Assembly (NCBI GenBank): GCA_019429365.1
Contig: JAHYJD010000003.1
Span: forward strand, 30,689 to 94,688
Length of the DNA: 64,000 nucleotides
Origin: Bacteroidales bacterium
Lineage (GTDB): Bacteria > Bacteroidota > Bacteroidia > Bacteroidales > UBA7960
Direction: 5' to 3'
The notes beneath the pieces are model-generated. The model saw only the letters and a list, made by a program, of their open reading frames with translations, was not told the origin of the DNA and did not search any database. Each line of letters begins with the position of its first letter. Position 1 is the first letter of the stretch. The position numbers and the translations under genes are program-made. This document shows positions 42,603 to 62,049 of the stretch, in pieces.

Positions 42603-42610
42603 TAAATTTG
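42603..42610 (+). promoter_or_regulatory. Candidate -7 box TAAATTTG immediately upstream of the ECF sigma gene
   Basis: Matches TAnnTTTG and ends 5 nt before ATG 42616. This implies either a leaderless mRNA or a downstream start (Met17, nt 42664). Confidence 0.35.
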
Positions 42611-42615: not shown

Positions 42616-43167
42616 ATGACCAACGAATTTATAAGCCAATGGGTTTCACTTTACACAGAGGATATGTTTAAGTGGGCTTTGCACAAAACATCTTCCCATG
42701 AAATTTCTGAAGATTTGGTACAGGATACTTTCATGGCTGCTACCGAGAAGATTTCGTCTTTTAAAGGCGACAGCACTCCAAAAACCTGGCTTTTTTCCAT
42801 TTTAAACAACAAAATTGTGGACTATTACCGGAAAAAAGTGAAGCAGGCAGTGCCAATGGAGGATCAGGTTTTTGCCTCGGTTTTCGATGCATCGGGGTCG
42901 TGGGTTAACAACCGGATGCCCCATGAATGGCATGACAGTGAAACCAACCTGCTCGATGACGAAGCGTTTCAAAAGGTATTGAAACACTGCTTGGATGCCT
43001 TGCCCGAAAAATGGAACCTATGCGTTAAGCTGAAATATCTGACCAATAAAAATGGCCAGGAAATTTGTCAGGAATTGAATCTAACCGCGTCCAACTTTTG
43101 GCAAATTATTCATCGGGCTAAATTGCAATTACGGGTTTGTATTGATCAAAACTGGTTTAATAATTAA
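42616..43167 (+). CDS. ECF-type RNA polymerase sigma-70 factor
   Basis: Region 2 (EDLVQDTFMAATEKISSFKGDSTPKTWLFSILNNKIVDYYRK) and region 4 (LPEKWNLCVKLKYL...GQEICQELNLTASNFWQIIHRAKLQLR). Confidence 0.85.
   Translation: MTNEFISQWVSLYTEDMFKWALHKTSSHEISEDLVQDTFMAATEKISSFKGDSTPKTWLFSILNNKIVDYYRKKVKQAVPMEDQVFASVFDASGSWVNNRMPHEWHDSETNLLDDEAFQKVLKHCLDALPEKWNLCVKLKYLTNKNGQEICQELNLTASNFWQIIHRAKLQLRVCIDQNWFNN
43066..43092 (+). promoter_or_regulatory. Candidate ECF-type promoter P0, internal to the 3' end of the sigma gene
   Basis: TGTCAGG (43066-43072), N15, CGTCC (43088-43092). The flank AAATTTGTCAGGA is identical to the one at site 49445-49458. About 80 nt upstream of the anti-sigma ATG. Confidence 0.4.
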
Positions 43168-43172
43168 TTTCA

Positions 43173-43433
43173 ATGAAAAGCATAAAGCATTTTTTTCTTA
43201 TTTCATGTTTAAAGGCCACTGAGTTAATGGAAAAGAATTTTCATTTCAAACTTTCTTTTTCTGAACGTCTTCAGCTAAAGGTGCATAAGTCAATGTGCAA
43301 GGCTTGTGCTCTTTACGACAAGCAAAGTGCCGCGATTGAAAAGGGCATTTCCAGGCAAATCAGCCAAGAGCACATTAAGACAGATATTGAAGGATTAAAA
43401 AACAAAATCCATCAAATGCTTGAAAGTAAATAG
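43173..43433 (+). CDS. Small soluble zinc-binding (ZAS) anti-sigma factor, RsrA-like
   Basis: 86 aa with no TM helix. Ligand pattern C12-x25-H38-x3-C42-x2-C45 (HKSMCKAC). Starts 6 nt after the sigma stop. Confidence 0.7.
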   Translation: MKSIKHFFLISCLKATELMEKNFHFKLSFSERLQLKVHKSMCKACALYDKQSAAIEKGISRQISQEHIKTDIEGLKNKIHQMLESK

Positions 43434-43472
43434 CATTCAAAACTTAAGTCTCTTTTTTTAAATTGGCTCAGA

Positions 43473-44033
43473 ATGGCAAGAATAAAAACCATTTCGCATG
43501 CTGATGCATCGGGAAGATTGCTCGAAATTTATGATGAACTGGTAAGAAAGCGAGGAAAACTTGCTGAGATTCATCAAATTCAGAGCTTAAGGCCCGAAAG
43601 CATTGTAAAGCATATGGAGCTCTATATGGAGATCATGTTCTCTAAATCTGAATTAAGCCGTTCGGAGCGCGAAATGATGGCCGTAGCGGTTTCGGTTGCC
43701 AATGGTTGTGCATATTGCCGCGAGCACCACCTTCAAGCATACAGGTTTTATGAAAAGGACAATTCAAAAGTTTTTTCTGTTATTAACTGGCCATTAAATA
43801 ATGTGCTTTCCGATCGGGAAGCCTCCTTATGCCATTTTGCCCGCTCCCTGACCCTCGATCCCCAAAGCCACGAAAGCAATGATTATACTGCTGCGCTGAA
43901 GACGGTTGGCTTGAGCGATGCAGGAATTCTTGATGCTGTATTGGTAATTGCCTATTTCAATTTTGTAAACCGGATCGTTTTGTCATTAGGCCTTGAATTC
44001 ACTCCCGAAGAGGCCACCGGCTACAAATACTAA
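43473..44033 (+). CDS. Carboxymuconolactone decarboxylase / AhpD-like peroxidase-related protein
   Basis: 186 aa. AhpD-core CxxC motif in VANGCAYCREHH. Confidence 0.75.
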   Translation: MARIKTISHADASGRLLEIYDELVRKRGKLAEIHQIQSLRPESIVKHMELYMEIMFSKSELSRSEREMMAVAVSVANGCAYCREHHLQAYRFYEKDNSKVFSVINWPLNNVLSDREASLCHFARSLTLDPQSHESNDYTAALKTVGLSDAGILDAVLVIAYFNFVNRIVLSLGLEFTPEEATGYKY

Positions 44034-44050
44034 ATTTTTCTCTCTCTCTT

Positions 44051-44077
44051 TGTAAGGAAGCTTCTTTTTATGCGTCT
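44051..44077 (+). promoter_or_regulatory. Candidate ECF-type promoter P1
   Basis: TGTAAGGAAG (44051-44060), then CGTCT (44073-44077). There are 15 nt between TGTAAGG and CGTCT. Intergenic, about 100 nt upstream of the thioredoxin-like gene. Confidence 0.55.
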
Positions 44078-44175
44078 TATCTTTCAAACAAGAAAGCGCC
44101 TGTGCAGTTCTTTGCCAAATTTTTCACGTTGCTTATTTCTTGTTTTGAAACACAAAACTATCAATGTAAACTACA

Positions 44176-44640
44176 ATGCTAAAAACTAAACGTATGAAAA
44201 TGAAAAAACTGGGTTTAATAATCGTGGCTTTTACAGTCACATCTTTATCAATGGTATTTGGTTCAGAAACAAAAAATGAGGCCGGAGAAGCAGGTATCGT
44301 TTTTCATGAAGGAAGCTGGGATCAAGCCCTGCAGCTTGCCAAGGAAGAGAACAAGCTGATATTTCTGGATGTTTATGCTACCTGGTGTGGGCCTTGTAAA
44401 AGACTGAAGGCTAATACTTTTCCTGATGCTGCGGTGGGCGAGTTTTACAATGCCAACTTCATAAATGTGGCCCTGGATGGCGAAAAGGGCGAAGGCCTGG
44501 AGCTTGCCCGAAAGTATAATGTAAGGAGTTATCCCAGCCTCTTGTTCATCGATTCCAACGGCCAGATCGTTGGCAGAACCGCAGGCTTCCACAATCCCGA
44601 CCGGTTTTTGGAACTGGGTCGTGCCATTGTAAACCTGTAA
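44176..44640 (+). CDS. Secreted thioredoxin-family protein
   Basis: Signal peptide (MKMKKLGLIIVAFTVTSLSMVFG), active site WCGPCK. The start may be 44176, 44194 or 44200. Confidence 0.8.
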   Translation: MLKTKRMKMKKLGLIIVAFTVTSLSMVFGSETKNEAGEAGIVFHEGSWDQALQLAKEENKLIFLDVYATWCGPCKRLKANTFPDAAVGEFYNANFINVALDGEKGEGLELARKYNVRSYPSLLFIDSNGQIVGRTAGFHNPDRFLELGRAIVNL

Positions 44641-44680
44641 TCCTTTATTTACCACTTTTTCAGGCTGTCCCTTTTCTGGG

Positions 44681-45643
44681 ATGGCCTTTTTTTTCGGGTT
44701 CAATGGCCTGGCGTCGGTTTATCATCCACACCTGATTGATCCGGGCAGCCCCGATTTTGTCCATCGTTTATTTTATGCTTACCGGCGCGATTTTATTCGT
44801 TTGCGCTTCGATGCTCAACTATACCTTTCAGGGAAAGCATTGCGTTTATTAACCGGATTTACCCACAACAGGTTTTTTGTTGATCCCCCATTGGCCGATG
44901 AATCAACCCGGGCAACAGACCAATCAAAAAGCTTGTTGGAATACTACCAGCAATGGAGCCTCATTGATGCTGGCGAAAGCACGGGTGGTACCATCAACCT
45001 TTTTTCTCTGGGGGTGGTTTACGACACACGCAATGATTATTGCTACTGCACCGATGGAAAGTGGTTTGAAGCTTTTGTGGTTGTTTCTCCAAGAAGCATA
45101 AGCACAAGCAGTTTTTCTAAGTTTATTGTAACTTACCGGCAGCACGCCAGCTTTTTCGGGGAAAACCTGACCTTTTCCTACCGGATTAGCAGCCAGCAAA
45201 AACTTTTTGGGAGGATTCCCTTTTACTTTTTGCCTACCTATATTGACAGTCGATTGAGTCATGACGGAGTTGGGGGCGCATTTAATCTGCGTGGAGCCAT
45301 GCGGAACAGGATGATTGGGGATGGGTTTTTGGTGGGAAACTTTGAAGCCAAAGCGCGAGTGCTTCAATTTGAAGTGGTTGGCCAGGAATTTTTTGCCAGC
45401 CTGGCTGTATTTTTTGATACTGCCATAATTAGTCAACGATTTGAAAAAGATCTTTCCCAAATCCCCGAAGAGGTTTCAGCCATTCATTTCAGGGAAAACA
45501 GGCAAATGCCCCAAATGACTTTTGGACCCGGGCTTTACATTGTTTTCAACAAGAAAAATGCCATTTCGGTTAATTATGGGTTATCTGCAAATCCACAAAC
45601 CGGGATCGGTGGCTTGTATGTTGGCTCAAGTTTGCTGTTTTGA
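44681..45643 (+). CDS. Omp85/BamA-like beta-barrel protein lacking a signal peptide (possible 5'-truncated remnant)
   Basis: 320 aa, beta-rich, ending in ...YVGSSLLF (OMP-type terminal Phe). There is no signal peptide. The frame opens only 48 nt upstream (in-frame stop at 44630-44632) and holds no alternative ATG. Confidence 0.4.
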   Translation: MAFFFGFNGLASVYHPHLIDPGSPDFVHRLFYAYRRDFIRLRFDAQLYLSGKALRLLTGFTHNRFFVDPPLADESTRATDQSKSLLEYYQQWSLIDAGESTGGTINLFSLGVVYDTRNDYCYCTDGKWFEAFVVVSPRSISTSSFSKFIVTYRQHASFFGENLTFSYRISSQQKLFGRIPFYFLPTYIDSRLSHDGVGGAFNLRGAMRNRMIGDGFLVGNFEAKARVLQFEVVGQEFFASLAVFFDTAIISQRFEKDLSQIPEEVSAIHFRENRQMPQMTFGPGLYIVFNKKNAISVNYGLSANPQTGIGGLYVGSSLLF

Positions 45644-45685
45644 TCACAGCAATAAAGGGGGAGTCCAAAAAAACTTGCATTTTTT

Positions 45686-45712
45686 TGTAAGGAAGATGAC
45701 ATGCAGACGTCT
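45686..45712 (+). promoter_or_regulatory. Candidate ECF-type promoter P2
   Basis: TGTAAGGAAG (45686-45695), then CGTCT (45708-45712). Same 15-nt spacing as P1. 49 nt upstream of ATG 45761. Confidence 0.55.
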
Positions 45713-45760
45713 GTTATGCTGAAAAAAAAATCACTAAAATTCAAATTTAAAATTTAAATC

Positions 45761-46117
45761 ATGACAAAAATTGCAATCGTAATTTATTCTGACACAGATA
45801 CCATGGAAGCCCTTGGAAAAGTATCCAATGCATTTGTTTTGGCCAATGAGGCCATTGACCATGGCGACGACCTGAAGATCATTTTTGAAGGGGCCGGGAC
45901 CAAATGGATCGGCGCTCTTGAAGATGAAGGGCATAAGATGCATGGTATGTACAAAGCCCTGAAAAATAGGATTACCGGAGCATGTAAGTATTGCGCCCAA
46001 GCCTTTGGCGTTAAGTCGCAGGTCGAAAAGGCCGGTGTTACCTTGCTGGACGATTACAAGGACCATCCCAGTATGCGAAATCTTGTAGCCGATGGATATA
46101 ACGTACTAATTTTCTAA
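45761..46117 (+). CDS. DsrE/DsrF-like family protein (cytoplasmic paralogue)
   Basis: 118 aa. MTKIAIVIYSD... and the GACKYCA motif. Paralogous to ORF 51754-52179. Confidence 0.6.
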   Translation: MTKIAIVIYSDTDTMEALGKVSNAFVLANEAIDHGDDLKIIFEGAGTKWIGALEDEGHKMHGMYKALKNRITGACKYCAQAFGVKSQVEKAGVTLLDDYKDHPSMRNLVADGYNVLIF

Positions 46118-46232
46118 AACATTTTGTTGTAGCTCACAGGTTTCATTCTCAGGATAATATTCATAAAGTATAATATTGATCGCTGCCTGAAGGAGGCCTG
46201 GGTGCTTCAACCTTTTAAAAAAATTATCACTC

Positions 46233-46706
46233 ATGAACAGAAAAAAAATACTAAAAATTGTAGCAATCCTTGCCGTTGCCGGATTGCTTATCGGAGGAGG
46301 GATCGGTGCCTATATGTTTTTCATGCCGCACCGCGACATCCAGAAATCACCCACTGACTTTGCCCTGACCAGTTCCGAGCTTGTGGCTGAATATCTGAAC
46401 GACATGGAACAGGCTAACCAAAAATATCTTTCTGCAGATGGAGAATCGAAGATTCTCGAAATTACGGGTACAGTAGCCGGCATCACTGAAGATTATAACG
46501 GCCAACAAGTAGTGTTGCTTAAAGAACCGGGCCAGGTGGCCGGCGTGAGCTGCACCTTTATGCAGGAGACCAATTCTAATGCAACAGCCCTTAACATTGG
46601 GCAATCAGTAACCATAAAAGGTGTGATCCGCTCAGGCGTGTTTTACGATCCTGACCTGGAAATGCACCTCAACGCCGTACTCGAAAAGAGCGATGTTGTT
46701 TTTTAA
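46233..46706 (+). CDS. Membrane-anchored OB-fold (tRNA_anti-like family) protein
   Basis: N-terminal TM helix (ILKIVAILAVAGLLIGGGIGAYMFF), then SELVAEYLNDMEQANQKYL...ILEITGTV...SVTIKGV, typical of this Bacteroidota family. Confidence 0.55.
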   Translation: MNRKKILKIVAILAVAGLLIGGGIGAYMFFMPHRDIQKSPTDFALTSSELVAEYLNDMEQANQKYLSADGESKILEITGTVAGITEDYNGQQVVLLKEPGQVAGVSCTFMQETNSNATALNIGQSVTIKGVIRSGVFYDPDLEMHLNAVLEKSDVVF

Positions 46707-46741
46707 CCCAATTTTTTTTTAAACCTTAATGAATTAGAAAA

Positions 46742-47311
46742 ATGAAAACCACGAAAATCCTTTTAACCGCTTTTATTACCATTGTTTTTTCAATGACAGC
46801 CTTTAGCCAGGCAGGTGATCGGCTGGTAAGCAGCAAATCACACATTAAATTCTTCTCCACCACCCCTGCAGAAGACATTGAAGCGAATAACTATTCAAGT
46901 ACCAGCACCATTAATACATCCAATGGCAATGTGGTATTTTCAGTGCCTATGCAGGGATTTGAATTCCCTAAAGCCCTAATGCAAAGGCATTTTAATAATT
47001 CCGACTTCCTGGACACCAAACAATTTCCAAATGCCAGGTTTGTTGGAAAGATTGTAAACCTTGATCAGGTAGATTTTTCGGCCAATGGCACCTACAACGC
47101 ACAGGTGGAAGGCGAAATGACCATAAAAGGAGTAACCAAGCCTATTCGCGAAAGAGGAACCATTACCGTGAGGGGAAATTCCATTGAGATAAACAGCAAG
47201 TTTAACCTTACCCTGGCTGATTATGGAATTGAATTTGTTAAAGGCAAACCGGCCAGCAATATTGCCAAGACCGTAGAGGTGACCTTTGTTGGTGAATATC
47301 AAAAACAATAA
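46742..47311 (+). CDS. YceI-family periplasmic polyisoprenoid-binding protein
   Basis: Signal peptide, then SHIKFFSTTPAEDIEANN...MTIKGVTKPI. Confidence 0.75.
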   Translation: MKTTKILLTAFITIVFSMTAFSQAGDRLVSSKSHIKFFSTTPAEDIEANNYSSTSTINTSNGNVVFSVPMQGFEFPKALMQRHFNNSDFLDTKQFPNARFVGKIVNLDQVDFSANGTYNAQVEGEMTIKGVTKPIRERGTITVRGNSIEINSKFNLTLADYGIEFVKGKPASNIAKTVEVTFVGEYQKQ

Positions 47312-47318
47312 AATAACT

Positions 47319-47364
47319 AAATGGGTGTTGCGCCTCGTCTGGTGCTTCACCCATTTCTTTTTTT
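47319..47364 (+). terminator. Probable rho-independent terminator after yceI-like gene
   Basis: AAATGGGTG (47319-47327) pairs with CACCCATTT (47348-47356) and is followed by CTTTTTTT. The loop is long (20 nt). Confidence 0.5.
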
Positions 47365-47376
47365 AGCTTGATCAAT

Positions 47377-47889
47377 ATGACACGTATTTTACTTCCTGCT
47401 TTCTTCCTGATTTTTATTCTTGTTTTACCTTCTAAGGCTAATCATCCGCAACAAGATCAACTATTGTTTTTAATTAACCGAAGTGTGGACAGAAATGAAG
47501 TTCATTACGTTGTAAACCTGGATAAATCTGGCTTCTTAGATAAGCACCAGCCTGTCAAAGTTTTTTGGGTCAAGCACGAAGAAAAAGGCCAAAGAGAGCC
47601 ATTAACCAGAATTCAGAATAAGTTTTCATATGGGCTTGAATTTATTCATGTAGATAGAGAAAAGGCCACTTTCAGGATAATTGCCCAGGACCAGCTTTTT
47701 GAGGTTTCAAAGGGTGCTAATGGGCGATTTAGGGCTGTGGCCCTGAAACCGAATGCCCAAGTGGTAGTTGAAAGAATTTTTGTACAAATTGATGGGGGTT
47801 CATTTTTGGTACCCAAAGTTTCAAAGGTTGAAATAAAAGGTTTTACTTTGGAAACTGGTAAATATTTTGTTGAAGCCCTGAAGCCTTAA
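47377..47889 (+). CDS. Secreted hypothetical protein (DUF4833-like)
   Basis: ATG 47377 (MTRILLPAFFLIFILVLPSKA). LFLINRSVDRNEVHYVVN resembles the DUF4833 family as I remember it. Confidence 0.45.
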   Translation: MTRILLPAFFLIFILVLPSKANHPQQDQLLFLINRSVDRNEVHYVVNLDKSGFLDKHQPVKVFWVKHEEKGQREPLTRIQNKFSYGLEFIHVDREKATFRIIAQDQLFEVSKGANGRFRAVALKPNAQVVVERIFVQIDGGSFLVPKVSKVEIKGFTLETGKYFVEALKP

Positions 47890-47916
47890 CCTGAAAACAA
47901 TTTAATTTTTTTTACC

Positions 47917-48582
47917 ATGACAAAATCATTGCCTCGCTCAGTCAATTATATAATAGAAGCACTCAATAAAACGGAAGTCATAGATAATAATATCCTTCCG
48001 GAGATTATTGAATCGGCCGGGCTGAAAGAAGAAGATCTTTTGCCCTTTAACAGCTTTCTGCATCCTGAAAGTGAGAGTTATGGTCGCTATCAGATATATG
48101 GCAATGACCGGTATAAGATTTTGTTGATGTCATGGCGGCCAGGCGATTTCACCGCCATTCACGATCATGGACTGGTTGAATGGGGTTGTGTCTGCTTCTT
48201 TGGTAAAACCACTCATCGGACCTATGCGTTTCAGGATGGACAACTTCGATTGAGTAAATGCGATGTTTTTGAAGCAGGACAGATTAGTTTGCTGAAAGGA
48301 GAACTTACCCACATGATGGGAAATGGAAGCAGTGCGAATATTATTACCCTTCACATTTATGGCGCGGATTCAGGTGTCGCTTTTAAAGAAGGACTGGCAA
48401 AAGTTTATGCTCCTGAGGAAAAAAAACTTTTTTATACTTCAGGAGAAGCTTATCTCGACATTTGCCATCGATTCGTTAAACACGAAGAAGATTTTTTTGC
48501 CTTTGATAAAGAAACTGTTTTTGACTACATAAGACTCACCAAATCTTTTTTCCTCAAAAGGAGAAGATTGATTCAAATTTAA
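47917..48582 (+). CDS. Cysteine dioxygenase type I-like cupin (thiol dioxygenase family)
   Basis: LMSWRPGDFTAIHDHG...LTHMMGNGSSANIITLHIYG matches the CDO pattern W-x-PGQ-x-x-x-IHDH ... H-x-V-x-N ... SLH-x-Y (3-His metal site). Confidence 0.65.
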   Translation: MTKSLPRSVNYIIEALNKTEVIDNNILPEIIESAGLKEEDLLPFNSFLHPESESYGRYQIYGNDRYKILLMSWRPGDFTAIHDHGLVEWGCVCFFGKTTHRTYAFQDGQLRLSKCDVFEAGQISLLKGELTHMMGNGSSANIITLHIYGADSGVAFKEGLAKVYAPEEKKLFYTSGEAYLDICHRFVKHEEDFFAFDKETVFDYIRLTKSFFLKRRRLIQI

Positions 48583-48602
48583 AATACCTTGACCCTGAAA
48601 AA

Positions 48603-49235
48603 ATGTTGGAAATGACCTTTTTGCTTGAACAAATTTTTGCACCCTTGTTGATTGGTTTTTTTGCTGCAACTGTTGGTGCCTTGCCTTTTGGGCTGGTTAA
48701 CCTTAATGTGGTAAGATTAGCTCTTCTGGGTCAGAAAAGGTATGCCGTAAAGGTGATCCATGGCGCTGCTTTTATTGAAGTGCTTTACGGATTTTTTGCC
48801 ATTCTTGCCGGCAGTGCCGTTTTTGTTCTTACTGAAGGCAACAACTGGGTTAATGCAATGGTTGTTGTGGTTCTTTTGGTTGCAGGTTTGTATTTCTTTA
48901 CTAAGAAACCTGGCTCAAAAGTTCAGGGTAATAACCAAAACCATGGTTTCTTTTATGGGGCCCTGTTGAATTTGCTTAGCGTACAGGTGTTTTTTTACTG
49001 GATCATTGCCCTGGTTTTTATTCATTCAAGAAATGTGATTACCTTCGATATCCCATCAATAATGGTTTTTGTTTTTGGCCTCTGGTTAGGTAAGATCACC
49101 ACTTTATTGGGGTACTTTTATTTCAGTAATAAGATACTTTCACGTTCACAGTTTTTTGAAAAAAACATTAATCGTGTCATTGGGGCAATTCTCCTGGCAG
49201 CAAGCGTTTTGCAAGGGGTTAAAATAACCCTCTAA
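48603..49235 (+). CDS. LysE/RhtB-family amino-acid (or metabolite) exporter
   Basis: 210 aa with about 6 TM helices. N-terminal GALPFGLVNLNVV segment typical of the family. Confidence 0.6.
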   Translation: MLEMTFLLEQIFAPLLIGFFAATVGALPFGLVNLNVVRLALLGQKRYAVKVIHGAAFIEVLYGFFAILAGSAVFVLTEGNNWVNAMVVVVLLVAGLYFFTKKPGSKVQGNNQNHGFFYGALLNLLSVQVFFYWIIALVFIHSRNVITFDIPSIMVFVFGLWLGKITTLLGYFYFSNKILSRSQFFEKNINRVIGAILLAASVLQGVKITL

Positions 49236-49449
49236 ATCATAAAAAAATAGCGGCAACCACTTTGCCTTTGCATGGTTTGCTTTTCATCCCGAAAGTGAAA
49301 TATACGGGCAACCATAAAATACTTGCTACTCCCGAAAATTAATTTCATTTAAGCTGTTTGTTTTCCCTGGCAGCTCACCACCAATAGGTCATACCGCTTC
49401 TTCTGTTACGGTCGGGCAGGCAAACGGCTTTTTCGATTAATGAAAAATT

Positions 49450-49475
49450 TGTCAGGATTTGATCTTAGGGCGTCT
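49450..49475 (+). promoter_or_regulatory. Candidate ECF-type promoter P3
   Basis: TGTCAGGATT (49450-49459), then CGTCT (49471-49475). 14-nt spacing. Intergenic, 88-127 nt upstream of the OM-barrel gene. Confidence 0.5.
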
Positions 49476-49601
49476 ATTTTTTTGAAACATTTTTTTAGGC
49501 AAAGGCGGGTATAAAAATTTCCTTTTAATAACGCCAATTGATGCGTCAAGTTTATCCACCCAATGACTTGCAAAATCATGTGTTTTAGAAAGAGTCTGGC
49601 C

Positions 49602-50645
49602 ATGAGAAAATCAAAACATACTCAAATTTACAGTAAAGAAAGGCAATCAGGATTCGGGGTGAAAGCCCAGTTTTTCCTTGCAATAGTATTTTCCTTTGTA
49701 TTATGGTTTGTAAATGAAAGGGCATATTCTCAGGCCTGCTGCTCAGGTGGTGTTCCGTTAGGGGGTAGTTTGGGCCTGGGTACGGCTGAGCGCAAATCCA
49801 TTCAATTTCTTGTTACTTATGATTTCAATGCCATTAACGACTTAATGGATGGTTCAAGACGCTTGTCCGATGATACCCGTAGCAGGACGACCCATTCTTC
49901 TATCCTTGAAATTAATTACGGGTTAACGTCACGCTTTTCCATTGCAGGGGTGTTTCCGCTTATTCGCCAGGAACGCGACATAAACGCCTATGCTGGAGCC
50001 AGGGATTTTACAGCTACCCAAGGATTGGGCGATGTGGCCATGCTTTTCAAGATTCGTGTTTTAAATCCTGAAAAGAAATCAGACTGGGAAGGAGTGGTTG
50101 GTGCCGGCCCTAAGTTTCCAACAGGAAGAACTACATTTACTAACAACCTGGGCCTGGCCTTGCCTGCTGATTTGCAACCTGGCTCTGGCTCATGGGATGG
50201 TTTGTTCTGGAGTTTTTTTCAGAAACGCAATGTCTCCCATCCCAACCTAAGCATAATGGGGGTTGCAACCATGCGGATTACGGGTGAGAATAAAAATTAC
50301 AACCAAACCCAGGTGTATCAGTTTGGCAATGAATTTCAGTTTAATCTGGGTGGCAACTATTCAGCTTACCTGCAATGGCCCCTGGATATTTTTGCCTGGT
50401 TCAGATACCGTAACCAGGCCGAGGACTTTATTGATGGGAGTGCTTTTCCAGGTTCAGGGGGGCAATGGGTATATTTCATCCCGGGCGTCAATATCCATTT
50501 CCTCGACAACCTGTCTTTCCGCCTTTCAGGTGATATCCCATTATACAGGCAACTCAACGGAACCCAACTGACTACCAGTTACCGGATAACCTTATCCCTT
50601 TCGTATAATTTGCCTTTGCACAATGAATCATTAATCTTTAATTAA
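49602..50645 (+). CDS. Outer-membrane beta-barrel protein with N-terminal Cys-Cys motif
   Basis: Signal peptide ...FVLWFVNERAYSQ, then ACCSGGVPLGG at the predicted mature N-terminus. Alternating beta pattern to the end. The start may be 49563, 49578 or 49602. Confidence 0.6.
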   Translation: MRKSKHTQIYSKERQSGFGVKAQFFLAIVFSFVLWFVNERAYSQACCSGGVPLGGSLGLGTAERKSIQFLVTYDFNAINDLMDGSRRLSDDTRSRTTHSSILEINYGLTSRFSIAGVFPLIRQERDINAYAGARDFTATQGLGDVAMLFKIRVLNPEKKSDWEGVVGAGPKFPTGRTTFTNNLGLALPADLQPGSGSWDGLFWSFFQKRNVSHPNLSIMGVATMRITGENKNYNQTQVYQFGNEFQFNLGGNYSAYLQWPLDIFAWFRYRNQAEDFIDGSAFPGSGGQWVYFIPGVNIHFLDNLSFRLSGDIPLYRQLNGTQLTTSYRITLSLSYNLPLHNESLIFN

Positions 50646-50656
50646 AACCGACCATT

Positions 50657-51700
50657 ATGAGAACTTTAATTATATCCTCCATGGCTTTTTTGCTTTTTTT
50701 AAGTAGCTGCCAGGATGAAGTAATGACCAATAACCCACCCATGGGTTCCAGTCAATGGCTGGTTCCCAGGGACGAAGTGCTTGACGGTGGCCCAGGAAAG
50801 GACGGGATTCCCGCCATTGACAACCCCCAATTTGTCAATGTGGCTGCAGTGCAATTTTTAACCGACGACGATCTTATCCTTGGCTTTGCCGATGGAGAGG
50901 ATATACGTGCCTACCCCCATCCGATCCTGAATTGGCACGAGATTGTAAATGACGATACCCAAAACCATTCTATTGCGGTAATTTACTGCCCGCTCACCGG
51001 AACAGGAATTGGCTGGGACAGGATGGTGAAAAATACCAAAACCACGTTTGGCGTTTCTGGGCTATTATATAATTCCAATATCATTCCTTACGACAGGCTT
51101 ACCGACAGTAACTGGTCGCAACTGATGATGCGTTCTATAAACGGCGAAATGATTGGAGCCCAGCCCAATTCTTATAGCTTGATTGAAACCACCTGGAAGA
51201 CCTGGAGGCAGTTGTACCCAAATTCAAAAGTATTGTCAACGAATACTGGATTTAACCGAAACTACGAAAATTATCCTTATGGGAGCTATAGATCTGGGGC
51301 GCACCTCATTTTTCCTGTTAATCATACCGATGATCGTCTGCACCCCAAAGAAAGGGTCCTGGCCGCATTTTTTGGTGACAGGCTTATAGCCTATACTTTT
51401 GAACTGTTTGATGAGAACCTCTCTATTGTAAATGATGAGTTCGTGGTAGCTGGAAGCCGTGATTTGAACCTGATGGTGGCATTCAGAAGGGTGCTGGATG
51501 GCACAACACTTGAATTTTCACCCTTACAGGATCAATTGCCCGTGATCATGCAGGACAATGAAGGAAATCAGTGGGATATTTTTGGAAGGGCTGTAACGGG
51601 TCCCCGCCAGGGCCAATCGCTCAGCCAACCAACACAAATGATGGGGTACTGGTTTGCTTTCGCGGCATTTTATCCGGATCTGCAGCTTTTTGAACCCTGA
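50657..51700 (+). CDS. DUF3179-family lipoprotein
   Basis: Lipobox FLLFLSSC. DGIPAIDNPQF...YPHPILNWHEIVND...VIYCPLTGTG resembles the DUF3179 signature. Confidence 0.6.
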   Translation: MRTLIISSMAFLLFLSSCQDEVMTNNPPMGSSQWLVPRDEVLDGGPGKDGIPAIDNPQFVNVAAVQFLTDDDLILGFADGEDIRAYPHPILNWHEIVNDDTQNHSIAVIYCPLTGTGIGWDRMVKNTKTTFGVSGLLYNSNIIPYDRLTDSNWSQLMMRSINGEMIGAQPNSYSLIETTWKTWRQLYPNSKVLSTNTGFNRNYENYPYGSYRSGAHLIFPVNHTDDRLHPKERVLAAFFGDRLIAYTFELFDENLSIVNDEFVVAGSRDLNLMVAFRRVLDGTTLEFSPLQDQLPVIMQDNEGNQWDIFGRAVTGPRQGQSLSQPTQMMGYWFAFAAFYPDLQLFEP

Positions 51701-51753
51701 GGAAGGCAGAAAAATTGTAACTTCATTCATTGGAAATACTAAAAATAAGCAAA

Positions 51754-52179
51754 ATGAAAGTAAAAAAGATTATTCCTTTGTTGTTTGTATTCATGTTCCT
51801 TTCCTTGAATATTAAGGCACAAAGTTCAACAGTTGAAGCAAACCACGATCATCTGGTCATAGTATGGACCAGCGACGACCCCTACATTGCCGAACGTATG
51901 GTTTTAATGTATGCTCATGCATCCAAAACCGCTGGATGGTTTGATGAAGTTACCCTTATCATCTGGGGCCCATCGGCCAAAATGGTTGCCGAGAACCTCA
52001 AAATACAGGAAAAACTGAAGGCCATGCAGCAAGACGGTGTGGAAATCAGGGCATGCATTGTTTGTGCCAACATGTATGATGTAACGGAAGAGCTCAAAGC
52101 CATGGGATTTGATGTGCAGGGAATGGGGAAACCCCTGACGGAATATCTGAAAGGCGGCGCCAAAGTTTTGACTTTCTGA
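51754..52179 (+). CDS. Secreted DsrE/DsrF-like family protein (periplasmic paralogue)
   Basis: ATG 51754 gives MKVKKIIPLLFVFMFLSLNIKAQ (signal peptide). RACIVCANMYDV motif and a ...KVLTF end, paralleling ORF 45761. Confidence 0.55.
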   Translation: MKVKKIIPLLFVFMFLSLNIKAQSSTVEANHDHLVIVWTSDDPYIAERMVLMYAHASKTAGWFDEVTLIIWGPSAKMVAENLKIQEKLKAMQQDGVEIRACIVCANMYDVTEELKAMGFDVQGMGKPLTEYLKGGAKVLTF

Positions 52180-52181
52180 TC

Positions 52182-52859
52182 ATGTCATCAAACCTTAAAC
52201 CTGCCGTCCTTTCTCTGGAGAAATTCAAAGAGATGGACTACCAGGCGGTGGAGAAGTATCAGCTTCCCATTGAATTGATGATGGAAAACGCTGGCCTTCA
52301 ATTGGCCCGGCTTGTTTCAACTTGCGCGAAAGAAAAGGCCAAAGTACTTGTTGGAGTTGGAAAGGGTAACAATGGTGGTGGTGGGTTGGTGGCTGCCCGG
52401 AGGCTTGCAGGATGGGGTTTCAGGGTTTTCCTTCACTTGCCCGAAAAAGATTTGAAGCCTCTTCCGGCATTGCAATTGTCAAGGGCGCTTGCTTTCGGAG
52501 TAAATCCTGAACCCATTCCTGACCCCGATATATTTGTGGAGGCCTACCTTGGCTTTTCACAACGGCTGCCCCTGTCAGCACCTGTTTTTGAAGCGGTTGA
52601 AAAAGCAAACCATTTGCAATGCCTTAAAATCTCGCTTGACCTCCCGACGGGTTTTGATATCAATACCGGTGAAAGCATTTTCAAACCCGACATAATCCTC
52701 ACGCTCGCTGCCATGAAAAAAGAATTGTTACTTCCTGGTGTATCTGCTCAATTGTATGTTGCAGACCTTGGGATCCCAGCTAGCCTTTACCAAAATTTTG
52801 GCGTTCAGCAACCCCGGGAATTTAAAGTTTCTGGTATTTTTAAATTTTCAGGAAAATAA
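52182..52859 (+). CDS. NAD(P)H-hydrate epimerase (YjeF N-terminal domain only)
   Basis: VLVGVGKGNNGGGGLVAARRL and the DLPTG motif. 225 aa stand-alone domain. Confidence 0.75.
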   Translation: MSSNLKPAVLSLEKFKEMDYQAVEKYQLPIELMMENAGLQLARLVSTCAKEKAKVLVGVGKGNNGGGGLVAARRLAGWGFRVFLHLPEKDLKPLPALQLSRALAFGVNPEPIPDPDIFVEAYLGFSQRLPLSAPVFEAVEKANHLQCLKISLDLPTGFDINTGESIFKPDIILTLAAMKKELLLPGVSAQLYVADLGIPASLYQNFGVQQPREFKVSGIFKFSGK

Positions 52860-52878
52860 AATACTTCAGCATAAAATC

Positions 52879-52904
52879 TGTCAGGATTTCCTTTCATGAC
52901 GACA
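52879..52904 (+). promoter_or_regulatory. Candidate ECF-type promoter P4 in front of the pentose-phosphate operon
   Basis: TGTCAGGATT (52879-52888), identical to the P3 10-mer, then CGACA (52900-52904). 14-nt spacing. 46 nt upstream of ATG 52950. Confidence 0.45.
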
Positions 52905-52949
52905 ATATGCATAAAACAGGGTCAATTTGTTCATTTAAAAAAATTAAAG

Positions 52950-53846: not shown

Positions 53847-53847
53847 G

Positions 53848-56111: not shown

Positions 56112-56135
56112 CCTATCGCTAATCATTAAGCAAAA

Positions 56136-58184
56136 ATGCAAAAACCTAAAATATCAAAAGAACTCGAAAAGCGGGTCATTGATACCATCAGAACCCTTTC
56201 AATGGATGCAGTGCAGGAGGCCAATTCAGGCCATCCCGGAACGCCCATGGCCATGGCGCCAGTGACCTTTACGCTTTACAATCGGTTGATGAAGTTCAAC
56301 CCCAAAAATCCAACTTGGATGAACCGCGACCGTTTTATCCTGTCGGCTGGTCATGCTTCAATGTTGCTTTACGCGACACTGCATGTAACAGGATATGAGG
56401 TCAGCCTTGACGAAATAAAATCGTTCAGACAACTTCACAGCGCCACTCCGGGCCACCCGGAATATGGCCACACCCCGGGTGTGGAAACAACCACCGGCCC
56501 ACTGGGACAGGGACTTGCAACCAGCGTTGGCTTTGCCATCGCACAAAAATGGCTGGCTGAGCGATATAACAAGCCGGGTTTTAACCTGATTGATTATCAT
56601 ATTTATTCACTGGCCGGCGATGGTTGTATGATGGAGGGCATTTCGTATGAAGCGGCTTCATTGGCCGGGCATTTAGGCCTGAATAACCTGGTTTGGATTT
56701 ACGACAGTAACAATATCACCATCGAAGGTAGTACTTCACTGGCTTTCTCTGAGAATGTGGCCAGACGTTTTGAAGCGCAAGGCTGGAATGTACTGGCAGT
56801 TGATGATGCAAACGATACCGAAAAATTGCATCAAACGCTTACCAAGGCCAGGAATGCAACCGATGCCCCCACATTGGTTATTGTGAAAAGCCATATCGCT
56901 TTTGGTGCTCCCAATAAACAGGACACACACGGCGCTCATGGCGCTCCATTGGGCGATGAGGAGATCAGAGAAACCAAGAAATTTTATGGTTGGGATCCGG
57001 ATAAAAAATTCTTTGTACCCAATGATGTTTCGCAACACGCCCTTGATATTGCTAACCGTGGCTTGAAACAAAATGCCGAATGGGATGAGCTTTTTGCAGC
57101 TTATCAGAAAGAATACCCGCAACTGGCCTCCGAACTGATTATGATTCAGAATAATGAATTGCCTGAAGGCTGGGACGCCGGATTACCGGTGTTTGAAGCA
57201 GGTACCAAAATGTCGGGCAGGGTTGCCAGCAGTAAAGTGTTGAATATTCTGGCTGGCAACATCCCATTTATGATGGGCGGATCGGCTGACTTATCGCCTT
57301 CCACGCTAACTGATATTAAAACTGAAAGCAGTTTTGAAAGAAATAATCCGGGTGGCAGGAATATGCACTTCGGTATCAGGGAGCATGCCATGGGCGCCAT
57401 CGCCAACGGAATGGCACTGAGTGGCCTGCGGACTTATGCTTCCACATTTCTGGTTTTCTCAGATTATATGCGTGGATCCATCCGCTTGTCGGCGCTGATG
57501 AAGCTGCCGGTAACCTATGTTTTTACCCACGATAGCATTGGGGTAGGCGAAGATGGCCCAACCCACCAACCCATTGAGCAGGTGGCTTCGCTTCGGGCAA
57601 TACCAAACCTGGAGGTGATCCGACCTGCCGACGCCAATGAAGTAGCTGTGCTTTGGAAACACATTGCTGCACAAAAACAAAATCCTGTAGCCCTGATCCT
57701 AAGCCGTCAAGACTTGCCGGTGATCGACAGGGATGTTTATGCCTCAGCCAATGAAGCATTGAAAGGAGCTTACGTATTGATGGACAGTAGCCAGAATCCC
57801 GATATAATACTGATGGCCACCGGTTCGGAAATTCAGCTTGCGTTACAAGCCGCTGAAAAATTAAAAGACCGTAACATCCAGGTCAGGGTGGTGAGCATGC
57901 CATCCTGGGAGCTTTTCGACCGGCAAGACGAAGCCTACCGCCGGTCAGTCCTTCCTCATCATGTTAAAGCTCGAATAGCAATAGAAGCCGGGGCGCATAT
58001 GGGCTGGCATAAATATGTTGGGCTGGATGGGGCTGTCATCGGCATGCAATCTTTTGGCGCCTCCGGAAAATTACCACAACTTTTGTCAGCATTTGGGTTT
58101 ACAGCCGACAATATTACTGAAACGGCACAATCACTTTTAAATATCGAAAAACTAAAAACAAATTCAAATGAACCAAAACACTAA
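56136..58184 (+). CDS. tkt: Transketolase (full-length, single polypeptide)
   Basis: ANSGHPGTPMAMAP, GDGCMMEG, and the HDSIGVGEDGPTHQPIE motif. Confidence 0.95.
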   Translation: MQKPKISKELEKRVIDTIRTLSMDAVQEANSGHPGTPMAMAPVTFTLYNRLMKFNPKNPTWMNRDRFILSAGHASMLLYATLHVTGYEVSLDEIKSFRQLHSATPGHPEYGHTPGVETTTGPLGQGLATSVGFAIAQKWLAERYNKPGFNLIDYHIYSLAGDGCMMEGISYEAASLAGHLGLNNLVWIYDSNNITIEGSTSLAFSENVARRFEAQGWNVLAVDDANDTEKLHQTLTKARNATDAPTLVIVKSHIAFGAPNKQDTHGAHGAPLGDEEIRETKKFYGWDPDKKFFVPNDVSQHALDIANRGLKQNAEWDELFAAYQKEYPQLASELIMIQNNELPEGWDAGLPVFEAGTKMSGRVASSKVLNILAGNIPFMMGGSADLSPSTLTDIKTESSFERNNPGGRNMHFGIREHAMGAIANGMALSGLRTYASTFLVFSDYMRGSIRLSALMKLPVTYVFTHDSIGVGEDGPTHQPIEQVASLRAIPNLEVIRPADANEVAVLWKHIAAQKQNPVALILSRQDLPVIDRDVYASANEALKGAYVLMDSSQNPDIILMATGSEIQLALQAAEKLKDRNIQVRVVSMPSWELFDRQDEAYRRSVLPHHVKARIAIEAGAHMGWHKYVGLDGAVIGMQSFGASGKLPQLLSAFGFTADNITETAQSLLNIEKLKTNSNEPKH

Positions 58185-59244: not shown

Positions 59245-59254
59245 ATCTATAGAA

Positions 59255-60871
59255 ATGAAGAAAACAAAATTGACGGAATCGGCCGTCTGGAAAAAACTTG
59301 ACAGGCAAAGCCAGAAAATAAAAGAGGATTCGCTTAGGGCGCTTTTTGAGCGGAACCCTGATCGTGTTAAGGACTTTTCATTGCAATCACAGGGTATTTA
59401 CTTTGATTACTCTAAACAGCTTATTGACAAAGAGACCATGGGCCTCTTGCTTGAGCTGGCAAGAGAACAAAAAGTAAAAGAACGCATGGATGCTATGTTT
59501 GCCGGTAAAAAAATCAATTCCACCGAGAACCGGGCTGTTTTGCATATGGCCCTGAGGGCCCCTGCCAATGCCGAATATTTGGTGGATGGCAAAAATGTGA
59601 TGCCCGAGGTTCACCAGGTACTCAGTAAAATGACCGCTTTTGCCGAAAAGGTGCGGAATGGACAATGGCTGGGTTATTCCGGAAAACCCATAAAAAACAT
59701 TGTCAATATTGGTATTGGCGGGTCAGACCTTGGCCCTGTTATGGCTTACGAAGCCCTGAAACATTACGCTCCATCCGATATGGTGTTTCGCTTTATTTCT
59801 AATATCGACGGCAGTGACTTTGCTGAAGCTACAAAAGACCTTGATCCGGAAGAAACTTTGTTTATTGTGGCTTCCAAAACCTTTACCACACTCGAAACCA
59901 TGACCAATGCCCAAACGGCCAGAAAATGGTTTTTGGAAAAAGCCAGGAATGAATCTTCCGTTGCAAAACATTTTGTGGCGGTTTCAACCAATACGGCTGA
60001 AGTACAAAAATTCGGCATCGATCCGGAGAATATGTTCGGGTTCTGGGATTGGGTTGGCGGTCGCTACTCCATGACCTCATCCATTGGGCTCTCAACAATG
60101 ATAGCCATCGGAAGTGAATTATATGGAGAAATGCTTAAAGGCTTTCATTTAATTGACGAGCACTTCCGCAACGCTCCTTTTGAACAAAATATACCGTTAA
60201 TAATGGGTTTGCTCAACATCTGGAACAATAATTTTCTGGATGCGCATACGCAGGCCATTCTGCCTTATGATAATTATCTGAAGCGCTTTCCTGCTTATCT
60301 GCAGCAACTTACTATGGAAAGCAATGGAAAGCATGTGACCCTCGATGGGGAAACAGTTAATTATCAAACCGGAACCATTTACTGGGGCGAACCCGGCACC
60401 AATGGACAACATTCTTTTTATCAGCTTATACATCAGGGAACACGGCTCATCCCCTGTGATTTTATTGGGTTTAAACAAAGCCTGAACCCACTAAAGCCAC
60501 ACCACGATTACCTGATCGCAAATATGATTGCCCAGGGCGAGGCACTGGCTTTTGGCAAAACCCTTGAAGAAGTCATTGGCGAGGGTATCGAAGAGTCGTT
60601 GGCTCAGCACAAAGTTTTTGAAGGGAACCGTCCATCTTCAACTTTCTTTCTGGAGAAACTAACCCCCGAAAACCTGGGTAAGCTGATTGCTCTATATGAA
60701 CACAGTGTTTTTGTGCAGGGTGCTGTCTGGAATATCAACCCCTTTGACCAAATGGGCGTGGAATTGGGTAAAGTGCTCGCACAAAAAATCATTCCAGAGC
60801 TGATGAATAAAAGCACTCAAATAAACCATGATGCTTCTACCAATGCCTTAATAGAACTTTTCAGGCAATAA
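59255..60871 (+). CDS. pgi: Glucose-6-phosphate isomerase (long, about 540-aa type)
   Basis: [11 protein letters not shown]...[11 protein letters not shown]...GGRYS...ESNGK...[15 protein letters not shown]. Confidence 0.95.
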
Positions 60872-60919
60872 CGAGTCATTCTGAAAAAGTACAAAGAGCA
60901 ACTCTTCAACTCCAAAAAC

Positions 60920-61114
60920 TTGCTCAGGCATATTAAGACGGCCCTTTTTGTTGGAATCATACTTAATCTGATCAACCAGGGCTATCTGCTCTGGGGTTTT
61001 CAATGGTCGGATATTAAGTTAACAAAATTCGTCCTTACTTTTTTCGTGCCTTTTGCAGTGTCGGTTTACAGCGCTGCGCAAGCTCGTATTCATTCAGATA
61101 AAAATCAAGAGTAA
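60920..61114 (+). CDS. Small membrane protein, possibly NrtS family
   Basis: 64 aa. IKTALFVGIILNLINQG...FFVPFAVSVYSAA resembles the NrtS-type small transporters as I remember them. TTG start. Confidence 0.4.
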   Translation: MLRHIKTALFVGIILNLINQGYLLWGFQWSDIKLTKFVLTFFVPFAVSVYSAAQARIHSDKNQE

Positions 61115-61845
61115 TGATAAAGGCAGTCATTTTTGACCTCGATGGAACCCTGGTTCAGACCGAAATCCTTAAGGCAGGGTCATACGCCCAAGCCATGCAC
61201 CAAATTAGCCATGGCCAGGTAACAGAAAGTGAAGTTGAGGCAGCATTTAAGGACCTAGTGGGGTTGAGCAGGGCTGAAGTGGCCGGCAATTTGGTACAGC
61301 AACATCTGCAGCACCTTATTCCTGATGCTTTTCCTGATATGGAGGCTGCCGTAAGGGAATTAATATCGCTCAGGCTTGATATTTATGCCCAGATGACTTC
61401 CGATCCGGCGGTCTTGCCTAAATATAGCTGCGAATTTAATATTGGCCTGTTGAATACTTCACGCCAGTTAAAAATGAAAACCGGATTGGCTACCATGTCG
61501 CATCAGGTGCAGGTAGAAAAGGTGCTCAACATCCTGCAGTTGCAAGATCATTTTGACCGGATCATTACCCGCGACATGATTCAGAATGGAAAACCAGATC
61601 CAGAAATTTACCTGAAAATGGTTGAGCAGTTGCAGGTACAACCACAGGAAGCCATAATTATTGAAGATTCCGTAAGTGGAATTAAGGCTGCCATGAATGC
61701 AGGTATTCAAGTGTTTGCGGTTACCAACAGGCTCACTCGGTTCAGCGTCAACAGCAGCAATATGCTTGATCCCCAATTTATTATTAATGATGTAAAGGAA
61801 CTAAACCTGAGGGTTATGGATTTTATAAAAAGTAAAGCAGCTTGA
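61114..61845 (+). CDS. HAD-superfamily hydrolase (subfamily IA, beta-phosphoglucomutase/phosphatase-like)
   Basis: MIKAVIFDLDGTLVQTE (DxDGT), ...GKPDPEIYL..., IIEDSVSGIKAA. Confidence 0.8.
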   Translation: MIKAVIFDLDGTLVQTEILKAGSYAQAMHQISHGQVTESEVEAAFKDLVGLSRAEVAGNLVQQHLQHLIPDAFPDMEAAVRELISLRLDIYAQMTSDPAVLPKYSCEFNIGLLNTSRQLKMKTGLATMSHQVQVEKVLNILQLQDHFDRIITRDMIQNGKPDPEIYLKMVEQLQVQPQEAIIIEDSVSGIKAAMNAGIQVFAVTNRLTRFSVNSSNMLDPQFIINDVKELNLRVMDFIKSKAA

Positions 61846-61895
61846 TGGTTGCCCTTTTAATTTTCGGAATCGGATTTTTTTATTTCGGTTTTAGT

Positions 61896-61922
61896 TGTAA
61901 GGATGACCTTCGGCCAGCGACT
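61896..61922 (+). promoter_or_regulatory. Candidate ECF-type promoter P5
   Basis: TGTAAGGATG (61896-61905), then CGACT (61918-61922). 15-nt spacing. Intergenic, 128 nt upstream of the rhodanese-thioredoxin gene. Confidence 0.45.
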
Positions 61923-62049
61923 CTTTGATCGTATTAAATCAAAGTAATTTTTTAAAACTGATCAAATAAGCATGTGCACATTCGTTCACACACAGGAGAA
62001 TGTCCACACAGGCGATTCCATGTACCCGAAATATTAAAATTATGAACAC

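Follow-up and report, generated by a model that had tools for sequence, protein, structure and literature searches.

The window analysed here is a stretch of 64,000 nucleotides from a Bacteroidales bacterium (contig JAHYJD010000003.1 of assembly GCA_019429365.1, forward-strand positions 30,689 to 94,688), and all coordinates below are positions in this window. From position 42616 onward it carries the gene of a sigma factor of the extracytoplasmic function (ECF) type, a small gene directly downstream that is predicted to encode a zinc-associated anti-sigma (ZAS) factor, and a series of co-oriented genes among which six copies of a bipartite, promoter-like motif (P1 to P6) are distributed. The features of this block are listed in order, with the evidence for each; the six motif copies were found by a regular expression and by a weight matrix, both described below.

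42616..43167, + strand: gene for a 183-aa ECF sigma factor, placed at the island's 5' edge (Pfam Sigma70_r2 and Sigma70_r4_2)
43066..43095, + strand: candidate promoter P1, internal to sigma codons 151-160, -35 TGTCAGGAAT, -10 CGTCCAAC, predicted start ~43101-43103
43173..43433, + strand: predicted cytoplasmic ZAS-type anti-sigma, 86 aa (NCBIfam and Cys/His signature; no Pfam domain)
43473..44033, + strand: AhpD/CMD-family peroxidase-related protein with a CxxC (Pfam CMD; TIGR01926 at 138 bits, above cutoff)
44051..44080, + strand: candidate promoter P2, TGTAAGGAAG-N12-CGTCTTAT, predicted start ~44086
44176-44640, + strand: secreted thioredoxin-like protein (Pfam Thioredoxin_2/7)
45686..45715, + strand: candidate promoter P3, TGTAAGGAAG-N12-CGTCTGTT, predicted start ~45721
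45761..49235, + strand: operon of DsrE-like, OB-fold (tRNA_anti-like), YceI, DUF4833, cupin (CDO_I-like) and a 210-aa uncharacterised protein (Pfam)
49450..49478, + strand: candidate promoter P4, TGTCAGGATT-N11-CGTCTATT, predicted start ~49484
49563..52859, + strand: operon of a 360-aa uncharacterised protein, DUF3179, a second DsrE-like protein and YjeF_N (NAD(P)HX epimerase-like) (Pfam)
52879..52907, + strand: candidate promoter P5, TGTCAGGATT-N11-CGACAATA, predicted start ~52913
52950-60871, + strand: pentose-phosphate block gnd-zwf-pgl-tkt-tal-pgi (Pfam NAD_binding_2/6PGD, G6PD_N/C, Glucosamine_iso, Transketolase, TAL_FSA, PGI)
58084..58113, + strand: candidate seventh promoter within the 3' end of tkt, TGTCAGCATT-N12-CGACAATA (TGTCAGC-N15-CGACAAT; matrix only, score 21.8), possible start ~58119
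61896..61925, + strand: candidate promoter P6, TGTAAGGATG-N12-CGACTCTT, predicted start ~61931
62050-62772, + strand: rhodanese-thioredoxin fusion (Pfam Rhodanese and Thioredoxin)
62784..64000, + strand: NDH-2-type NADH dehydrogenase, continuing past the window end (Pyr_redox_2 and NDH2_C)

A sequence-only reading of this DNA had named the genes as ECF sigma, AhpD-like, secreted thioredoxin, two DsrE-like, OB-fold, YceI, DUF3179, gnd to pgi, rhodanese-thioredoxin and NDH-2, and Pfam and NCBIfam bore out these names. To locate the motif, both strands of the window were scanned with the regular expression TGT[AC]AGG-N14/15-CG[AT]C and with fixed-gap versions of it. Exactly six matches were obtained, all on the + strand, with the N15 gap at 43066, 44051, 45686 and 61896 and the N14 gap at 49450 and 52879, the same six copies that had earlier been picked out by eye. 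The regular expression found no match on the - strand of the whole window, and in the remaining ~42 kb of the window (its first 42 kb) none on either strand. Dinucleotide-preserving shuffles gave a chance expectation over both strands of 0.04 for N14 and 0.08 for N15, or ~0.12 in total versus the six observed, and none of the shuffles reached the observed counts.

The start codon that follows lies 81, 99, 49, 88, 46 and 128 nt past the end of CG[AT]C for the six sites in order. Five of the six are intergenic when gnd is taken to start at 52950, so the earlier statement that five sites lie between genes and that the downstream start follows within 46-128 nt holds under that gene model; the first site lies within sigma codons 151-160. 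The longest gnd open reading frame begins at an ATG at 52896, inside the P5 motif. The start is almost certainly 52950, because the Rossmann motif MKIGFIGLG is found there and the Pfam match runs from residue 20, and site 5 is therefore intergenic.

We then compared the window with 80 loci from different species that carry an orthologous sigma gene, 1.09 Mb in total, each oriented with the sigma gene on the + strand. The regular expression, used unchanged, gave 160 matches on the sigma strand versus 3 on the opposite strand; the pattern, defined after its sites had been seen, thus held on independent sequence, and the motif is not equally frequent on the two strands. A weight matrix was trained on the non-coding matches of the 80 loci, with the window sites left out, and was used at a threshold score of at least 15. 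It gave 215 sense versus 5 antisense matches in these loci, while random sequences of the window's composition gave 0.07 matches per 64 kb. The two halves of the motif are coupled, since 84 of the 96 sense TGTCAGGWWT boxes outside the sigma gene are followed by CG[AT]C at N14/15, versus 1 of 10 antisense boxes. Run on the window, the matrix recovered the six sites and one more at 58084 (seven matches versus 0.07 expected) and nothing on the - strand, with scores of 22.1 for P1, 15.3 for P2 (the weakest), 20.4 for P3, 29.7 for P4 (the best), 28.1 for P5 and 17.3 for P6. As the matrix was derived from the regular expression of the sequence-only reading, its recovery of the six sites is not independent evidence, whereas the locus counts and the strand bias are. 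A probable seventh site is thus to be added to the six. This additional site lies 58 nt upstream of tal, a motif also precedes a tal homologue in one related locus, and, tentatively, it may serve as an internal promoter boosting tal-pgi.

The matches are not spread evenly around the sigma gene. Only 11 matrix matches fell in the 10 kb upstream of the sigma start, 77 of the 80 loci had a match inside the 3' part of the sigma gene (a 500-nt bin), and more than 120 further matches were found in the 10 kb starting 500 nt past the sigma start. This positional distribution indicates a regulon island of co-oriented genes whose 5' edge is the sigma gene. The gene next 3' of the motif was the anti-sigma gene in 74 cases, rhodanese-thioredoxin in 23, OB-fold in 16 and DsrE in 11, and more rarely secreted thioredoxin (5), gnd (4), YceI (3) or tal (1). 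Rhodanese-thioredoxin is the commonest intergenic target, its 23 motif-preceded cases standing among 27 loci that carry the orthologue; the DsrE orthologue has the motif 43-47 nt upstream in all 11 loci that possess it, and gnd has it upstream in 4 of 4, with unrelated spacer sequence. Preservation of the two boxes amid spacers and flanks that are unrelated between species constitutes a phylogenetic footprint, and leader lengths for typical targets have medians of 28-56 nt. Motif-preceded genes without a counterpart in the window are similar in character and encode a WCPAC thioredoxin-like protein (13 loci), DinB (7), an AhpC/TSA peroxiredoxin (5) and DUF4395 (4), and DoxX, DUF427 and NDH-2 were further motif-preceded genes in the related loci. 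Same-strand orthologues of the window genes were present for AhpD/CMD in 25 of 80 loci, OB-fold in 24, YceI in 23 and DUF4833 in 18, and those of the P4-operon genes in 2-9 loci each, all co-oriented. The sigma/anti-sigma pair was present in 79-80 of the 80 loci, any target gene in at most 27.

The consensus over the family is tTGTCAGG(A/T)(A/T)T-N11/12-CG(A/T)CTAT, followed ~6 nt later by an A-rich position (~70-78% A at the intergenic sites of the related loci). It is almost the promoter of Neisseria sigma-E, which has a -35 element GTMAGBWTT, a -10 element CGTCTAAH and a spacer of 12-13 nt, and in which a conserved A 6 nt past the -10 coincides with the transcription start that experiments located for gonococcal msrAB (PMC2893595). 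At all six window sites the -35 conforms to the GTMAGB core and the -10 is CG(T/A)C, and three of the six deviate from the trailing WTT. The A peak of the present family, GT(C/A)AGG(A/T)(A/T)T with CG(T/A)CTAT, stands at the same offset, and the promoter types are near-identical. The TGTAAGG form of the -35, found at half of the window sites, is allowed by the Neisseria consensus, in which M is A or C.

As a separate observation, 11 of the 23 rhodanese-thioredoxin promoters (e.g. L004:4824, L013:6557, L048:7544 and L064:11946) share a conserved TATCTGTT(C/T)A immediately after the -10, which may represent either the region of the start or a further regulatory signal. P6 of the window is without TATCTGTT(C/T)A, and its leader is ~100 nt longer.

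The internal site P1 was studied at the codon level. Its letters also encode the conserved region-4 peptide I-C-Q-E-L ... (T/P)-(S/T)-N, which raises the alternative that only the intergenic sites are true ECF promoters, that P1 is a mere by-product of this peptide, and that the anti-sigma gene is expressed by read-through only. Such a by-product is conceivable in that the -35 box is encoded by the invariant Cys151-Gln152-Glu153. However, the synonymous third positions are fixed beyond matched controls. Cys151 is TGT in 75 of 75 orthologues (55/55 in the full-length set), while other invariant Cys codons are mixed (Cys125 31/24, Cys175 44/11); Gln152 is CAG in 74 of 74 (54/54 in the full-length set), with Gln36 at 48/7 and Gln163 at 38/17 as controls; and Asn160, inside CTAAT, is AAT in 50/5, with Asn64 at 28/27 as control. 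Fisher tests of this codon bias gave p values of 1e-7, 3e-5 and 6e-6 for Cys151, Gln152 and Asn160, respectively. The -10 half is less uniform. About half of the internal sites carry CCTACTAAT at the -10, with no CG there (NCG in 38 of 75 orthologues), and the -10 of the window itself, CGTCCAAC, scores low at 3.4, both of which would be expected of a by-product. On the other side, 52% of species have NCG at the codon contributing the CG, versus 9-19% at comparable codons in the rest of the gene, an enrichment of ~3-5 fold, and CCTACTAAT resembles -10 variants that also occur at some intergenic sites of the related loci. An internal promoter of this kind has, moreover, been demonstrated in Corynebacterium glutamicum (PMC3489674). 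The codon counts beyond the controls argue that P1 is maintained at the DNA level; from these sequence data P1 looks like a promoter that depends on the sigma factor and serves the anti-sigma and AhpD genes, and we regard the by-product explanation as unlikely, although it is the alternative that survives best.

The protein encoded downstream of P1 has the sequence characteristics of a ZAS factor. Its open reading frame begins 5 nt past the sigma stop in the window and 5-13 nt past it in most orthologues, the gene is present in 79 of the 80 loci, and the sigma and anti-sigma genes are presumably cotranscribed, as the AhpD/CMD-like gene presumably is with the anti-sigma gene. The signature is Cys12 ... 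His38-x3-Cys42-x2-Cys45 (C-x25-H-x3-C-x2-C), and none of C12, H38, C42 and C45 varies among 75 orthologues; the sequence-only reading, too, had placed an anti-sigma gene beside the ECF sigma gene. The Cys-to-His distance of 26 residues equals that in RsrA (C11/H37) and NMB2145 (C4/H30). A Pfam search with the anti-sigma returned no domain and a PDB sequence search noise only, and its structure predicted by AlphaFold consists of four helices (pLDDT 89). The sequence motif is strong evidence for the predicted ZAS identity. The public gene call for this protein (P0124, 79% coverage) is 68 aa long, starts from Met19 and loses Cys12. We prefer the 86-aa start on account of the conservation across the 75 orthologues, Cys12 included. 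A profile search with the anti-sigma alignment yielded 1,697 homologues, and the best 120 of the 1,697 were all from close Bacteroidales relatives; nearly all homologues are annotated 'hypothetical', and one RefSeq copy bears the name 'anti-sigma factor family protein'.

The sigma factor has the traits of an ECF protein, namely a length of 183 aa and regions 2 and 4 only, with Sigma70_r2 (E 8e-14) and Sigma70_r4_2 matches, and it scores 88.9 bits against TIGR02937 sigma70-ECF (cutoff 42.9). Its best PDB sequence match is Mycobacterium tuberculosis SigH (E 1.6e-9), and its orthologues, at 58-85% identity, come from Marinilabiliales-like Bacteroidales (Draconibacterium, Prolixibacter, Labilibaculum, Thermophagus and Geofilum). 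The matrix found no cognate motif 5' of the sigma gene in the window, and only 2 of the 80 loci have one within 400 nt. In the absence of a cognate promoter there, the regulatory loop would feed back on the anti-sigma and not on the sigma factor. A strong terminator-like hairpin with a T-run (42519-42543) lies 3' of the upstream gene, and a housekeeping -7 box of Bacteroidetes type, TAAATTTG (42603-42610), ends 5 nt before the sigma ATG. From the arrangement of hairpin and then -7 box, the sigma gene may have a transcript of its own, constitutive and possibly leaderless. TAnnTTTG was found in 18 of 56 orthologous sigma upstream regions versus 0.07 expected per 150 nt. Judging from these sequence elements, the sigma gene is probably transcribed from a housekeeping promoter.

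Taken together, these results point to a model in which the motif is the promoter read by RNA polymerase carrying the ECF sigma factor of 42616-43167, and we consider this explanation, including release from the anti-sigma and control of the whole island, to be probable. The promoter would consist of a -35 element tTGT(C/A)AGG(A/T)(A/T)T and a -10 element CG(T/A)CTAT separated by 11-12 nt. In the unstressed cell, the sigma factor would be held by the 86-aa cytoplasmic zinc-binding ZAS anti-sigma; oxidation or modification of C12, C42 and C45 would release it, and the free sigma factor would transcribe six or seven co-oriented units over a ~20-kb island. The units induced would be the anti-sigma together with the AhpD-like peroxidase, the secreted thioredoxin, the two DsrE operons (with OB-fold, YceI, DUF3179 and NAD(P)HX epimerase), the whole pentose-phosphate pathway, supplying NADPH for thiol reduction, and rhodanese-thioredoxin with NDH-2. 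With a constitutive sigma factor and an anti-sigma inducible through P1 in the region-4 codons, feedback would be negative only and would shut the response off. The output of the island would accordingly be thiol and sulfur redox repair (thioredoxins, AhpD-like protein, DsrE, rhodanese and NDH-2) plus NADPH, for which the pentose-phosphate block is the presumed supply. By analogy with Haemophilus, disulfide stress, HOCl or peroxide are candidates for the inducing chemistry, and the DsrE, rhodanese and DoxX content hints at reactive sulfur species. The sequence-only reading had proposed that the motif copies are promoters of the adjacent ECF sigma/anti-sigma pair, and that proposal gains support from the association of motif and sigma gene, the coupling of the two halves, the identity of the targets, precedent and the codon constraint at P1.

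Several findings weigh against this model. The anti-sigma matches NF052368 'antisigmaE' at E 6e-11 and 42 bits, below the cutoff of 50, and the sole relevant Foldseek match of its predicted structure, the ZAS anti-sigma RsiW, is non-significant (E 2.9, TM 0.58 on the target, probability 0.51). The sigma factor is below the cutoff of every specific NCBIfam model, the closest being TIGR02943 with 138.7 bits vs 162, and for an ECF sigma it is unusual to lack an upstream autoregulatory promoter. Three of the six window sites have TGTAAGG and the lowest matrix scores (15-20), whereas C occurs at that position in 94-100% of cases family-wide; the variant may mark weaker promoters or a lineage-specific shift. 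The leader of P6 is 128 nt versus an orthologue median of 28 nt, the spacer of 11-12 nt is, as counted here, one nt shorter than the 12-13 nt reported for Neisseria, and the CG missing from about half of the internal sites belongs here as well.

An alternative reader of the motif would be a paralogous ECF sigma encoded elsewhere in the genome, with the local sigma a regulon member or bystander. A Bacteroidetes genome has ~22 ECF sigmas on average (PMC7826278), cases of overlap among ECF promoters are known, and the local sigma gene has no cognate promoter upstream. However, in the 80 species the motif cluster starts exactly at the local sigma gene and runs downstream on the same strand, the sigma/anti-sigma pair is the sole constant of the loci (79-80 of 80 versus at most 27 for targets), and the motif matches the promoter type of a sigma factor paired with the same kind of anti-sigma, all of which makes a paralogous sigma very improbable. 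Still less credible is an operator for a conventional DNA-binding repressor or activator. In principle any conserved upstream motif could be one, and nothing specific speaks for it here, whereas the motif consists of two asymmetric blocks at a fixed spacing of 11-12 nt, shows neither dyad nor direct-repeat symmetry, strictly shares the orientation of the gene that follows it (215 vs 5), and has the ECF signature of a CG(T/A)C -10 with an A-rich start ~6 nt on, matching the consensus with the gonococcal mapped start; no other regulator gene is constant in the 80 loci. That the six matches cluster by chance, under a pattern drawn by eye after the sites had been seen, is a negligible prospect given 0.12 expected in shuffles versus 6 observed and the 160 versus 3 split by strand in an independent 1.09 Mb.

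Among characterized systems, the closest in promoter and anti-sigma features are Neisseria sigma-E (Ecf) with MseR (NMB2145) and Haemophilus influenzae RpoE2-HrsE, which were placed in the original ECF13, since merged into ECF293 (PMC2893595, PMC7907618, PMC7826278). Neisseria sigma-E and H. influenzae RpoE2 are held by small cytoplasmic ZAS anti-sigmas, HrsE being 67 aa long. The window resembles them in having a predicted small soluble anti-sigma (67-86 aa class) directly 3' of the sigma gene with the same Cys...His-x3-Cys-x2-Cys spacing, and in a presumed output of oxidative or thiol-damage repair. This likeness is one of promoter and anti-sigma features; ECF293 is a candidate group for the window sigma, and ECF114 (see below) an alternative. 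Unlike those systems, the present one belongs to Bacteroidota. The Neisseria regulon is tiny, comprising its own operon and msrAB, and is autoregulated from upstream, whereas six or seven units lie in one island here, the pentose-phosphate pathway included, and no msrAB was seen. Upstream autoregulation is a trait of ECF13/ECF293; in its place, the window has a predicted internal promoter before the anti-sigma gene.

The predicted wiring at P1 is that of C. glutamicum SigH-RshA. There, sigH is transcribed from several upstream promoters, experiments showed that rshA is driven by a SigH-dependent promoter within the sigH coding sequence, and this internal promoter was proposed to speed shut-off (PMC3489674). 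C. glutamicum SigH-RshA, Streptomyces SigR-RsrA and M. tuberculosis SigH-RshA (ECF12) also share with the system predicted for the window the ZAS redox-switch type of anti-sigma and a thioredoxin/thiol-homeostasis regulon. However, the ECF12 promoter is GGAAT-N16-19-GTT, while the window has TGTMAGG/CGWC with a shorter spacer and thus does not show the ECF12 type, and the ECF12 systems are from Actinobacteria, with a mycothiol and heat-shock regulon scattered over the genome rather than clustered. The type of stress switch is already known and the example is new; it is Neisseria-like in promoter and anti-sigma and C. glutamicum-like in wiring and thiol theme.

Two systems from Bacteroidales were also considered. 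EcfO-Reo of Bacteroides fragilis and Phocaeicola vulgatus is likewise a Bacteroidales ECF system and was first described as protecting against oxidative stress; it was rejected as a homologous system because Reo is large and extends from the cytoplasm to the cell surface, and because its regulon consists of NigD lipoproteins. No NigD-like targets were seen among the motif-preceded genes. Porphyromonas gingivalis SigH and B. thetaiotaomicron BT1197 (ECF114) are, like the window sigma, ECF factors of Bacteroidales; they are oxygen-induced and linked to aerotolerance and co-expressed thioredoxins, and ECF114 is listed as a group for which neither an anti-sigma nor any other regulator is known. 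Neither the work on the Flavobacterium psychrophilum ECF motif SM6 (T9SS genes) nor the B. thetaiotaomicron modulon paper reports a motif or system that matches, and both were set aside.

Whether this is the first-described widespread thiol/sulfur-stress switch of Bacteroidota, with a mostly unannotated ZAS anti-sigma, a self-read -35 box and control of the whole pentose-phosphate pathway, is a further claim that we hold to be possible but rather doubtful. If it were true, the ~1,700-member ZAS anti-sigma family could contain the 'missing' regulator of ECF114 (P. gingivalis SigH type); the DNA encoding the sigma factor's -35-reading region would double as that sigma's own -35 box, kept by synonymous selection in all species examined; and the entire pentose-phosphate pathway would be under direct sigma control within one contiguous regulon island. 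The model offers a testable regulon map, with one sigma, one sensor and ~seven promoters, for the understudied, environmental and uncultured-rich Marinilabiliales-like Bacteroidales. It also gives a guilt-by-association context to DsrE-like, OB-fold tRNA_anti-like, YceI, DUF3179, DUF4833, DUF4395, DoxX and DinB proteins, in that one redox switch would join these poorly characterised families with thioredoxins and rhodanese and with the pentose-phosphate NADPH supply. The use of a promoter type defined in Neisseria across phyla fits a conserved sigma/promoter/anti-sigma module. P1 would be a natural coding-embedded promoter with measurable synonymous constraint, in which synonymous changes separate protein from promoter.

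The finer subdivision of the operons and the remaining genes of the block are as follows.

44681-45643, + strand: possible beta-barrel protein (Omp85 below its cutoff only)
45761-48582, + strand: DsrE-like to cupin genes of the P3 operon (Pfam)
48603-49235, + strand: 210-aa uncharacterised protein, last of the P3 operon
49563-50645, + strand: 360-aa uncharacterised protein, first of the P4 operon
50657-52859, + strand: DUF3179, second DsrE-like protein and YjeF_N (Pfam)
61114-61845, + strand: HAD hydrolase after pgi (Pfam HAD_2)

Two candidates at the 3' end of the window were discarded. A TGTCAGG at 62820 on the - strand is followed by CGTT and not CGWC, falls below the matrix threshold and is antisense inside ndh, and a - strand open reading frame at 62793-63578 (261 aa) is spurious, having no family match and overlying the clear NDH-2 gene on the + strand. 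An Rfam search of the whole window at gathering thresholds gave no match, so the conserved leaders are not among known RNA elements.

Directly 5' of the sigma gene, on the same strand, lies a gene for a lycopene-cyclase-domain protein (carotenoid synthesis; 41820-42506), which is without the motif; no homologue of it adjoins the sigma gene in the 80 related loci, and the adjacency therefore looks incidental. A generic scan of the block for sigma-70 promoters and terminators returned chance-level counts and was informative only for the hairpins at 42519-42543 and 44662-44687. The latter, terminator-like with a 10-bp stem and a T-run, sits immediately 3' of the gene for the secreted thioredoxin and runs across the annotated start of the 44681-45643 gene, and because of it the P2 unit may be monocistronic.

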